This document shows, piece by piece, positions 11,501 to 14,500 of a stretch of 64,000 nt of DNA. The stretch's first letter is position 1; the number at the start of each line of letters is the position of its first letter. The stretch comes from Escherichia coli (lineage in GTDB: Bacteria; Pseudomonadota; Gammaproteobacteria; Enterobacterales; Enterobacteriaceae). Location of the stretch: the NCBI RefSeq assembly GCF_002854065.1, contig NZ_CP024147.1; one strand, 5' to 3'. The position numbers are program-made.

Positions 11501-14500
11501 TGACCGGAGAAAGCGATCCATTGTTGGCATCTGACAAGGCGCTGGACTGGGTAGATCTGGTGCTGTGCACCGCCGGGCCAATCGGCTTGTATATGGCGGG
11601 CTTTACCGAAGACGAAGCGAAACGTAAAACCCAGCATCCGCTGCTGCCGGGCGCTATAGCGGAATTCAACCAGTATGAGTTTAGCCGCGCCATGCGCCAC
11701 AAGGATTGCCAGAATCCGCTGCGCGTTTATTCGCACATTGCGCCGTACATGGGCGGGCCGGAAAAAATCATGAACACCAACGGAGCAGGGGATGGCGCAC
11801 TGGCAGCGTTGCTGCATGACATTACCGCCAACAGCTACCACCGTAGCAACGTACCAAACTCCAGCAAACATAAATTCACCTGGTTAACTTATTCATCGTT
11901 AGCGCAGGTGTGTAAATATGCTAACCGTGTGAGCTATCAGGTACTGAACCAGCATTCACCTCGTTTAACGCGCGGCTTGCCGGAGCGTGAAGACAGTCTG
12001 GAAGAGTCTTACTGGGATCGTTAACTCATCGGATGTAACCAAATGGCACCCGTAGGCCGGATAAGATGCGCCAGCATCGCATCCGGCAATGCGATTTATC
12101 CAAACAGGGCAATCCCGGCGTCTTTTTTTACTTCTGACATGGACGCATAGAATGAAAAAAGTATGGTATCTGCAACATACGCATTTTGGCGATATGAAAG
12201 AAATCGGTATTTACACCCGTTATGAACGGGCTTTGCAGGGCAAAAAGGACGTGGAAAATAAGCCAGGTTTTGTGGATTCCCCGGAAAATTTTCAGTTTAT
12301 TGAATACATTCTTAACCAGGATCTCTGGGGTGATTTTCCCGTTACACAGGCAGACGATCCCGTCGAGCCGATGGTTTACAGCCTGTGGCACATTCGTGAC
12401 GATGAGGCTGATGATTACGTCTTCCTCGGTATTTATACCACTGCCGAACTGGCGGAGCAGGCCCGCGAACGAGCCTGCCGCTATTTTCAGGAAGATGCTG
12501 CAAATATTCAGCCAGACAAAGGGCTGCTTGATCGTACCTGGTGGGAAGAGGGCTTCATTTCATGGGACGAAGCCTCGGAATTGATTACTCCCAACGCGGT
12601 ATAAGCATCTGGCATTTGGCTCTCGATGCCTGATGCGACGCTGGCGCGTCTTATCATGCCTACATATTTTTCATATTCTACATTCGGCAACCACCGTTTA
12701 CCCCGTCACCACCTCACCCGCCGGTGGCGTTTCCAGCAGTTCCAGCATAGTACGGGCAATTTCACGCTCACCCATCACTACCTGATTCGCGCCACGTTCG
12801 GTGATATACGCCACTTCATCGTCATAATGGGCGCGGGCGATAATCTCAATATCCGGGTTTTTCGCGCGGGCAGACGCCACAATCTCGCCTGCTTCATAAC
12901 CGTTGGGAATCGTCAGGATCAGCCATTTTGCACATTCCAGATGCGCCAGTTGCATAATTTCTTCGTTCGCCGCATTGCCCAATACAGCGCGGACCCCACG
13001 CTCTCGCAGCTCATCAACACGGGTTCGTGACGTCTCAATCACCACCAGCGGAATATCAGAGGCGAGCAATTTCTCCCCCAGCAGGCTGCCTACACGACCG
13101 TAACCAACCAGTAGCGCATGGTTGCAAATATCCACTGGGATCTGCTTCTCTTCTTCGATTGCCTCTTCCAGCGTCTGCTCTTCCAGCGTTTCGGTCTTCG
13201 CCAGATATTTCTCCAGCAGCGCAAACAGGACCGGGTTGAGCATAATCGACAAAATCGCACCTGCCAGTACCAGGTTCTGCCCGGCTTGCGGCAACAGATC
13301 CAGCGCCATGCCCAGTCCCGCCAGGATAAACGCGAACTCACCAATTTGCGCCAGGCTGGCGGCGATAGTTAATGCCGTACGTTGGGAGTGACCAAACAGT
13401 CGCACCAGGAAAAATGCGGCTAACGACTTACCAAACAGAATAATCGCCAGCGTCGCCAGCACTGCCAGCGGTTGCTGAATCAGAATTAACGGATCAAACA
13501 ACATCCCGACGGAGACAAAAAACAGCACCGCAAACGCGTCGCGCAATGGCAGCGTATCGTGGGCGGCACGGTGACTCAGTTCAGACTCGTTCAGTACCAT
13601 CCCGGCAAAGAACGCACCGAGTGCAAAGGAGACATCAAACAGCTCTACCGCACCAAAGGCAATCCCTAACGCCAGCGCCAGCACCGACAGGGTAAACAGC
13701 TCGCGAGAACCGGTTGCCGCGCTGCGTGCCATAATCCACGGCACCAGACGGCGACCTACCAGCATCATAATGGCGATAAACGCGATCACTTTGCCGATGG
13801 TGATCCCCATATCGACTGCAAGAGTGGCAAAGCCCACATCGCCCTGTTCCATCATTCCTGCCACTGCGGGCAGCAACACCAGCGTCAGAACCATTACCAG
13901 GTCTTCCACAATCAACCAACCGATGGCGATTTGCCCACGCTGACTGTCAATTAATTGCCGTTCTTCAAGTGCGCGCAGTAACACCACGGTACTGGCGGTG
14001 GAAAGACATAAACCGAACACGATACCGGTCATTAACGACCAGCCCAGCACGGCAGAGAGCGCCATACCCAGCAGCGTCGCCACGGCTATCTGGGCGATCG
14101 CGCCGGGAATGGCGATGGCCTTTACCGCCATCAAATCCTTCAGCGAAAAGTGCAGACCCACGCCAAACATCAACAGAATGACGCCCAGTTCAGCCAGTTC
14201 CGGCGCAAGCTTGGTATCGGCAACAAAGCCCGGAGTGAATGGTCCTGCCAGCACACCCGCTAACAGATATCCCACCAGAGGAGAAATACGTAGTTTATTG
14301 GCCAGCATGCCGAGGATAAAGGCGAGCACAAGGCCGCCAACAATGGTGGTGATAAGCGGGGTGGCGTGATGCATTCCGTCTCCTTTTCCTGGTGGTTATT
14401 GTCCATTTTTGGCCGGGAAAACCAAAATTACAGGTAATAGTTTATGACAATTTCATTGATGATGTTCATGAATAATTATTGAATTTTGCAGAAAAATGGA

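Follow-up and report, generated by a model that had tools for sequence, protein, structure and literature searches.

Genes for the C-terminal domain of a polymorphic toxin and for its immunity protein are classically recognised by their tight, recurrent pairing, as in the Rhs, CdiA and LXG systems. The immunity proteins of these systems (RhsI, CdiI and the products of 'orphan' immunity genes) are small, acidic and cytoplasmic. Antitoxins of type II toxin-antitoxin (TA) systems are likewise small acidic proteins, encoded in tight two-gene cassettes that vary among strains. Here, we describe a gene that shares features with both kinds of system, found in a 64,000-nucleotide stretch of Escherichia coli DNA (contig NZ_CP024147.1 of RefSeq assembly GCF_002854065.1; hereafter, the window). 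The gene lies between gsk and ybaL and encodes an acidic protein of 150 aa that is related to DUF7336, a domain to which Pfam gives no function. Across the genus Escherichia, a cassette of two genes occupies this site, of which the gene is the second, and the genomic neighbourhood of its distant relatives suggests that it may be a leftover, orphan immunity gene.

A gene under purifying selection between gsk and ybaL

The gene and its two domains occupy the following positions in the window:

12152-12604, + strand: coding sequence of the 150-aa acidic protein, stop codon included, with two tandem DUF7336-like domains (open reading frame (ORF), RefSeq annotation, ratio of non-synonymous to synonymous substitution rates (dN/dS), codon use, phmmer search and AlphaFold2 (AF2) model)
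12158-12337, + strand: domain 1 (residues ~3-62), a β-β-α-β unit with the motif VWYLQH..IGIYT..A..PGF..F..W
12371-12559, + strand: domain 2 (residues ~74-136), the source of a sub-threshold match to Pfam DUF7336

The ORF starts with an ATG at 12152 (MKKVWYLQ…) and ends with a stop codon at 12602-12604. RefSeq has a coding sequence with identical coordinates, annotated as 'hypothetical protein' WP_032280413.1, at the identical locus (L001) of E. coli XJ34. A longer reading of 171 aa, from an ATG at 12089, was rejected: it starts within a repetitive extragenic palindromic (REP) element and is not conserved, and both the RefSeq annotation and the orthologues start at 12152. The protein has an isoelectric point (pI) of 4.38, a grand average of hydropathy (GRAVY) of -0.63 and six Trp residues. 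Its N-terminus (MKKVWYLQHTHFGD) is polar, and the sequence contains no hydrophobic stretch or transmembrane segment; no dedicated signal-peptide predictor was run. A first-pass annotation, made from the sequence alone, had described a well-formed acidic ORF of ~150 aa, starting MKKVWYLQ and flanked by REP elements, whose product lacks transmembrane segments and a signal peptide. The ORF at 12152-12604 has REP elements on both sides, and the low pI and the lack of a hydrophobic N-terminus or transmembrane segment agree with that description.

The pattern of variation among alleles is that of a protein-coding gene. Comparison of the window allele with those of E. coli L003-type and E. albertii gave a dN/dS of ~0.13 (pairwise values of 0.11-0.18), and among five alleles the numbers of variable sites at codon positions 1, 2 and 3 are 11, 20 and 51. 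A codon-adaptation score trained on the neighbouring genes is 0.66 in frame, as compared with 0.36 and 0.41 in the other frames. The GC content of the gene is 0.48, against ~0.50-0.55 for the flanks, and the composition is not foreign. We conclude that the ORF is a real gene under purifying selection.

The protein consists of two diverged copies of a DUF7336-like domain

Local alignment of the two halves of the protein gave a score of 47, as compared with 23±4 for shuffled sequences, none of 1000 of which reached the observed score (z ~5.7). The aligned halves are 24-27% identical and share W, GIYT, A, Q, F, N, Q, L and W as invariant residues. At the DNA level, the duplication can still be seen as a repeat of 36 nt, with copies at 12204 and 12426 (a spacing of 222 nt). 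The homology search proposed in the first-pass annotation, which we ran as an exhaustive phmmer comparison with 1.84 billion protein representatives, yielded 54 remote homologues at E <= 1e-3 and led to the DUF7336 family; the best remote matches are P0011 (E 3.5e-10) and P0012 (E 2.5e-9). The curated gathering threshold of the family (Pfam PF24024) is 25 bits. Those relatives that were tested are bona fide members: P0016, P0033 and P0012 score 65.5, 57.8 and 49.2 bits, respectively, and they match the window protein in phmmer with E-values of 2.7e-7, 1.0e-4 and 2.5e-9. Two orthologues of the window protein score 17.0 and 21.7 bits. The relatives comprise both one-domain (~75-100 aa) and two-domain (~135-180 aa) proteins. 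Since its phmmer matches include proteins that score above the threshold, we place the window protein as a divergent member of the family; on these sequence comparisons, it is homologous to DUF7336 and contains an internal domain duplication.

An AF2 model built from a 49-sequence alignment (predicted local distance difference test score (pLDDT) 87.5, predicted template-modelling score (pTM) 0.79) consists of two β-β-α-β units. An earlier run with a shallow alignment of seven sequences was unusable (pLDDT 43.6). We found no solved structural relative of the model, and no similarity to solved immunity proteins. Sequence searches of NCBIfam, PADLOC, PHROGs and the PDB with the 150-aa protein detected nothing significant. 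Weak similarities to SPOR and YflT domains were also seen, below threshold.

The gene is the surviving half of a genus-wide two-gene cassette

In other Escherichia lineages, the gsk-ybaL site contains two closely spaced genes, of which the 150-aa gene is the second. We observed this arrangement in three divergent E. coli strains, E. fergusonii, E. albertii, contigs of the E. marmotae/ruysiae type and Escherichia sp. E1V33. The order of the genes, hereafter gene 1 and gene 2 (the gene in the window), is strictly conserved, and the stop codon of gene 1 is separated from the start of gene 2 by 2-14 nt. The product of gene 1 is an acidic protein (pI 4.6-4.9) of 111 aa, or of 94-98 aa in an allele with a 17-aa in-frame deletion. 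Searches with gene 1 detected no match in Pfam, NCBIfam, PADLOC, PHROGs or the PDB, a comparison of the profiles of gene 1 and gene 2 revealed no relationship between them, and no homologue of gene 1 was found among the neighbours of non-Escherichia DUF7336 genes.

Alignment with the two-gene loci of E. coli 2013C-4282, E. coli 2017-02-2CC and E. albertii indicates that the window has lost gene 1 by a deletion of ~0.3 kb that extends from just upstream of the gene 1 start to its last ~7 codons, with a junction at ~12107-12119. What is left of gene 1, as judged from these alignments, is:

~12117-12137, + strand: gene 1 remnant (last ~7 codons and a TGA)

The identical deletion junction is present in an E. 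albertii contig (L009), where gene 2 is intact. We conclude that the gene in the window is the surviving half of a genus-wide cassette, and not a lone insertion. The remark in the first-pass annotation that no cognate partner is adjacent is correct for the window, but it is correct because the neighbouring gene was deleted. Separately, we noted that a run of six or seven T residues at the 3' end of gene 1 (window 12123-12129; L003 ~5995-6000) moves the stop codon between alleles, such that the product ends either …FFYF* or …FFTSDMDA*, the latter ending 2 nt before gene 2; the window has the seven-T form.

Gene 2 is rare in E. coli, being present in 12 of 5426 complete genomes: nine copies are identical to that in the window at the nucleotide level, and three are ~91% identical. 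The 6.3-kb surroundings of the nine identical copies are 98.2-100% identical to those in the window, and strains with flanks 99.4% identical to those of the window are without the gene. In K-12 (an MG1655 derivative), a REP pair of 132 nt alone lies between gsk and ybaL, with no gene. The first-pass annotation took this site to be without a gene in K-12, and it proposed a comparison of the interval across genomes; its view holds, with the gene absent from 99.8% of the complete E. coli genomes, and the comparison revealed the REP pair in K-12 and the two-gene cassette elsewhere in Escherichia. A cluster of proteins at 90% identity contains 123 sequences, and all members that we read are from Escherichia (E. 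coli, E. albertii, E. ruysiae and E. fergusonii) and annotated as 'hypothetical'. Hundreds of Escherichia contigs carry the exact window protein. A pattern scan of one genome per species (100,044 species) had a sole match, in Escherichia sp. E1V33, and a k-mer-indexed protein search with the full protein, gene 1 and the domain profile returned Escherichia orthologues and fragments only. We found no match by tblastn in plasmid and phage collections, and hence no sign of an origin in a mobile element.

Relatives of the gene lie downstream of a basic, toxin-like domain

We examined the genomic neighbourhood of the DUF7336 relatives. At six independent non-Escherichia loci (L019, L020, L026-29, L030/31, L032 and L033), a DUF7336 gene lies directly downstream of one and the same basic domain, which we refer to as the KDVPSW…GDR domain. 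At L019, the end of an Rhs core (TIGR03696, 71 bits; DPIGL…DPLGL) in the upstream ORF is followed by a C-terminal domain of ~130 aa (L019:241-633); the stop codon of this ORF overlaps the start of the DUF7336 gene for P0012 by 4 nt, and an RHS-repeat ORF follows. At L030, an ORF of 171 aa (L030:5855-6367) has the same C-terminal domain as L019 (49% identity, E 3e-25), and the gene for the DUF7336 protein P0011 starts 15 nt downstream. At L026-29, the domain is encoded by an ORF missed by the gene caller (L026:7485-7970) whose product is 63% identical to the 171-aa protein of L030 and which ends 30 nt before the DUF7336 gene; hence, a DUF7336 gene that seemed to stand alone among housekeeping genes is paired too. 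At L020, a domain ORF of 183 aa is followed by two DUF7336 genes. The domain copies at L026-29 and L020 were found by tblastn and profile search. On a Moraxella osloensis plasmid, a protein of 108 aa annotated as 'type IV secretion protein Rhs' (L032:1789-2115) is followed after 33 nt by a DUF7336 protein of 68 aa (76.7 bits). On the megaplasmid of Methylorubrum extorquens AM1, the domain forms the end of a long ORF, and a DUF7336 ORF (76.2 bits) comes next. At a further locus, L022, DUF7336 genes form an island together with small ORFs and orphan fragments of Rhs type.

The shared domain has ~70 aa and the consensus SGKEGSKDVPSW…G.RP.VGE.GKDFAKRL.D..YG.GN…KIQK.GDR.F.DP., and it is basic (pI 8-10), whereas its DUF7336 partners are acidic (pI 4.4-4.8). 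It occurs after an Rhs core, at the end of an immunoglobulin (Ig)-domain protein of ~2960 aa and in small stand-alone ORFs; it was also located at L034:~2450-2707. A profile of the domain detected nothing in Pfam, NCBIfam or the PDB. It looks like an undescribed polymorphic-toxin C-terminal domain. Our literature searches found no paper on DUF7336/PF24024, on the protein accession or on the gsk-ybaL intergenic region. In passing, we observed a ybaL-like gene (Na_H_Exchanger and TrkA_N domains) ~6-7 kb from the pair in an unrelated soil bacterium (L026:15392-16513, L027:13920-15641), which is probably a coincidence.

REP elements and other repeats at the gsk-ybaL site

The flanking genes, which are separated by 673 nt in the window, and the repeats between them are:

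10720-12024, + strand: gsk (inosine/guanosine kinase), left flank
~12052-12090, + strand: left REP element, an inverted repeat that matches the REP pattern with 0 mismatches
12606-12615, + strand: REP half-site GCATCTGGCA, after the stop codon of the 150-aa gene (alignment with the K-12 derivative MGY)
~12626-12665, - strand: right REP element, in opposite orientation, present in K-12 too
12698-14374, - strand: ybaL (K+ efflux transporter family), right flank, convergent with gsk

These elements have the properties of REPs, being imperfect palindromes of the GCC(G/T)GATG…CATC(C/A)GGC type that are extragenic and recurrent. The arms of the inverted repeat are 14 nt long and 86% complementary; REP patterns occur 4-6 times in the window as compared with ~0 times in shuffled sequences; and an E. 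coli genome contains a median of 12 matches to the REP segments of the locus. The half-site GCATCTGGCA corresponds to the right arm of the first K-12 REP and is the right boundary of the DNA that is extra relative to K-12. Elsewhere in the window, we noted three more REP elements of the same type as that at 12628-12663, at 19766-19801, 52553-52588 and 61141-61176.

Direct repeats flank the cassette of E. albertii, and they duplicate part of the REP pair (26 nt, 85%), the gsk 3' end (24 nt, 88%) and a REP. The flanking REP/bacterial interspersed mosaic element (BIME) segment is the segment that forms the sole content of the K-12 interval, and recombination between the REP-pair repeats in E. albertii would leave exactly the K-12 state. 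In the L003-type allele of E. coli and E. fergusonii, the flanking direct repeat instead duplicates 64 nt of the ybaL 3' end (84%). The repeats of the ybaL and gsk ends point to several routes of rearrangement rather than to REP-REP recombination alone. Thus, of the proposal in the first-pass annotation that the gene was inserted or deleted by REP-mediated recombination, a REP-associated deletion is plausible given the direct REP/BIME repeats of E. albertii, but REP recombination is not the sole process, and what was rearranged is a two-gene cassette and not a lone insertion.

Divergence at synonymous sites differs between gene 2 and its flanks. Between the window and E. albertii, it is 0.25 for gene 2, 0.64 for gsk and 0.51 for ybaL; between the window and L003, it is 0.40 for gene 2 and 0.17-0.18 for the flanks. 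This discordance suggests that the cassette moved between Escherichia lineages and species by homologous recombination. The identity of the deletion junction in the E. albertii contig L009 also points to inter-species recombination of the spacer.

Two other sites also vary among these strains. E. coli 2017-02-2CC (L002:1500-2003) and 2013C-4282 (L003:1432-2004) have an extra hypothetical gene between adk and hemH that encodes 167-190 aa, has no Pfam match and is missing from the window, where adk runs to 8518 and hemH begins at 8650. Downstream of ushA, strain 2013C-4282 has a hypothetical gene and a DUF6896-domain gene (L003:11639-12457), and strain 2017-02-2CC has ybaK and ybaP at that spot.

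Discussion

We propose that the gene in the window is an orphan immunity gene of the polymorphic-toxin (Rhs) type, a reading to which we give an even chance of being right. According to this proposal, the cytoplasmic, acidic tandem-DUF7336 protein would act by binding, and so blocking, a basic toxin domain delivered by competitors, of the KDVPSW…GDR or a related type. The gene is what survives of an old cassette of two genes that became fixed between gsk and ybaL in Escherichia: K-12 and most other E. coli have lost the whole cassette, with the REP pair remaining, and the window strain has lost gene 1 alone, by the ~0.3-kb deletion, and kept gene 2 under purifying selection. The recurrent pairing of DUF7336 genes with one toxin-like domain is what leads to this reading, and the complementary charges of the paired proteins count in its favour. 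From these gene neighbourhoods, we infer that DUF7336 may neutralise the KDVPSW…GDR domain and that the diverged Escherichia copy may still do so. The product is small (150 aa, GRAVY -0.63) and apparently cytoplasmic, as an immunity protein should be, with a polar N-terminus and no hydrophobic stretch. An immunity gene should also lie directly downstream of the C-terminal domain of its cognate toxin; this is the arrangement at the six loci of relatives and not in the window, which has no toxin domain, so that the window gene could be an 'orphan' at most. A toxin-less, immunity-only state is the expected end state for such loci. The first-pass annotation had suggested an immunity or antitoxin-like protein. 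This receives support from the position of DUF7336 relatives after a toxin-like domain, which is of Rhs type in two records, but the support comes from relatives of ~30-45% identity, and the lost neighbour is no recognisable toxin.

Several observations weigh against this proposal. The window protein falls short of the PF24024 threshold (20.4 bits, E 4.7e-4, residues 85-104), and it is only ~30-45% identical to the toxin-linked relatives. No KDVPSW…GDR domain was detected by tblastn or profile search in the 64-kb window or in the Escherichia loci compared; the gene 1 product of Escherichia is acidic, belongs to no detectable family and is unrelated to the toxin-like domain. The pairing itself has an exception, on an Acaryochloris plasmid, where the domain ends the ~2960-aa Ig-domain protein and is followed by an ORF that is not DUF7336. 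In P0011 (L030:6386-7129, 247 aa), a degenerate toxin-like domain (KDIPIW…GNR) stands between two DUF7336 domains, an odd architecture for a simple toxin/immunity picture. The gene is dispensable, being missing from 5414 of the 5426 complete E. coli genomes, and in E. fergusonii CP079884 (L012:5001-5309) it carries a CAG-to-TAG nonsense mutation at codon 103 next to an intact gene 1 of the 17-aa-deleted form, whereas the 150-aa copy is intact in other genomes of E. fergusonii. Lastly, scans upstream of the gene revealed no sigma-70-like promoter, be it in the window, in E. albertii or in E. coli L003, and its Shine-Dalgarno sequence is a weak one. With no promoter-like site seen, expression would depend on read-through from gsk, which is the probable route.

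Rarity and the lack of a promoter-like site could also be taken to mean that the ORF is a decaying relic without present function, sitting in a recombination-prone, REP-rich spacer and destined for loss, as in most E. coli. It is present in just 0.2% of the complete E. coli genomes, its partner is deleted, one E. fergusonii copy is a pseudogene, and close relatives with flanks 99.4% identical do without it. Against decay, nine E. coli genomes share an intact frame at 100% identity although their flanks diverge by as much as 1.8%, dN/dS is ~0.13 across three allelic lineages, and the exact protein occurs on hundreds of contigs; we regard a relic as unlikely. We judge it similarly unlikely that genes 1 and 2 form a self-contained Escherichia module for defence or of the toxin-antidote kind, in which gene 2 would neutralise or regulate the product of gene 1 and of which the window strain would have kept the antidote alone. 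The conserved gene order, the 2-14-nt spacing and the shared site across the genus, including three E. coli strains, are what such a module would display. Gene 1 occupies the position of the toxin gene at other DUF7336 loci, and its loss with gene 2 intact, in the window and in E. albertii L009, is the order of loss that a toxin and antidote would tolerate. On the other hand, gene 1 encodes a small acidic protein (pI 4.6-4.9) with no enzymatic or toxin signature, and no homologue of it lies beside any non-Escherichia DUF7336 gene. Were gene 1 an active toxin that full-length gene 2 neutralises, E. fergusonii CP079884, which keeps gene 1 while gene 2 is pseudogenised at codon 103, should not be viable; the 17-aa in-frame deletion in its gene 1 allele softens this argument.

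A third possibility, that DUF7336 is a small general-purpose binding or stress domain and that the Escherichia protein has a housekeeping-type accessory role with no link to toxins, appears to us improbable. Some DUF7336 genes do lie among housekeeping genes (L026 and L030), but in both cases a toxin-like ORF is directly upstream, and the resemblance to SPOR and YflT domains, which might be thought to favour such a role, is below threshold; the presence of one specific upstream domain at six loci is hard to account for on this view. There is, finally, a small chance that the locus represents a new two-gene system, with the 111-aa gene 1 product as a novel effector and the tandem DUF7336 protein as its neutraliser or sensor at one site genus-wide, and with DUF7336 and the KDVPSW…GDR domain as a toxin-immunity family pair that the literature we found does not contain.

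The orphan-immunity proposal gives a Pfam domain of unknown function a functional hypothesis, namely that it confers immunity to an uncharacterised toxin domain found at the end of large proteins, those of Rhs type among them, and it points to a toxin-like domain without a relative in Pfam, NCBIfam or the PDB. If the proposal is true, the locus exemplifies orphan immunity genes that persist without a toxin under purifying selection. For E. coli, the site is a small example of accessory genes gained, trimmed and lost in REP-rich spacers. The gene is nonetheless of an ordinary kind, and no major picture is changed. The first-pass idea of an immunity-like orphan with REP-linked gain or loss is partly supported, and the analysis refines it with the deleted partner, the genus-wide cassette, the DUF7336 membership and the association with a toxin in relatives.

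We compared the locus with four described classes of protein or element. Like Pfam DUF7336, the protein is built of ~60-aa β-β-α-β units with the core motif h-h-h-H…K-h-h-G-h-Y-S/T…A…A…PGF.D.P..F.I…LD…W.EGF, and it displays the G-x-Y-S/T … A … (P)GF … F … W pattern, which occurs singly or in tandem; unlike typical members, it scores below threshold, with only the second domain detected, and the Escherichia subfamily, in contrast to the wider family, is confined to one genus and a fixed chromosomal site. As in the REP/BIME insertion-deletion polymorphisms of E. coli, the breakpoints lie in or near REPs and the empty site of K-12 is a single REP pair; the 64-nt ybaL repeat of the L003-type allele and the additional duplication of the gsk 3' end in E. 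albertii depart from that pattern. Unlike type II TA antitoxins, the protein has no helix-turn-helix, ribbon-helix-helix or AbrB domain, is encoded by the second gene of the pair and has a partner outside the known toxin families; searches of Pfam, NCBIfam, PADLOC and PHROGs with either gene detected nothing significant, and no TA or anti-phage defence model matched. The fourth comparison is with the immunity proteins of Rhs and other polymorphic toxins. The Escherichia locus differs from these systems in having no toxin gene, Rhs core or secretion-system gene nearby, in the unrelated acidic 111-aa protein that is its neighbour, and in that the protein shows no structural similarity to solved immunity proteins. 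It resembles them in that relatives of the gene lie directly downstream of, and sometimes overlap, a variable C-terminal toxin domain that follows the DPxGL motif of the Rhs core, in that relatives occur in arrays with small ORFs and Rhs fragments, and in that a toxin-less copy is carried by some strains only.

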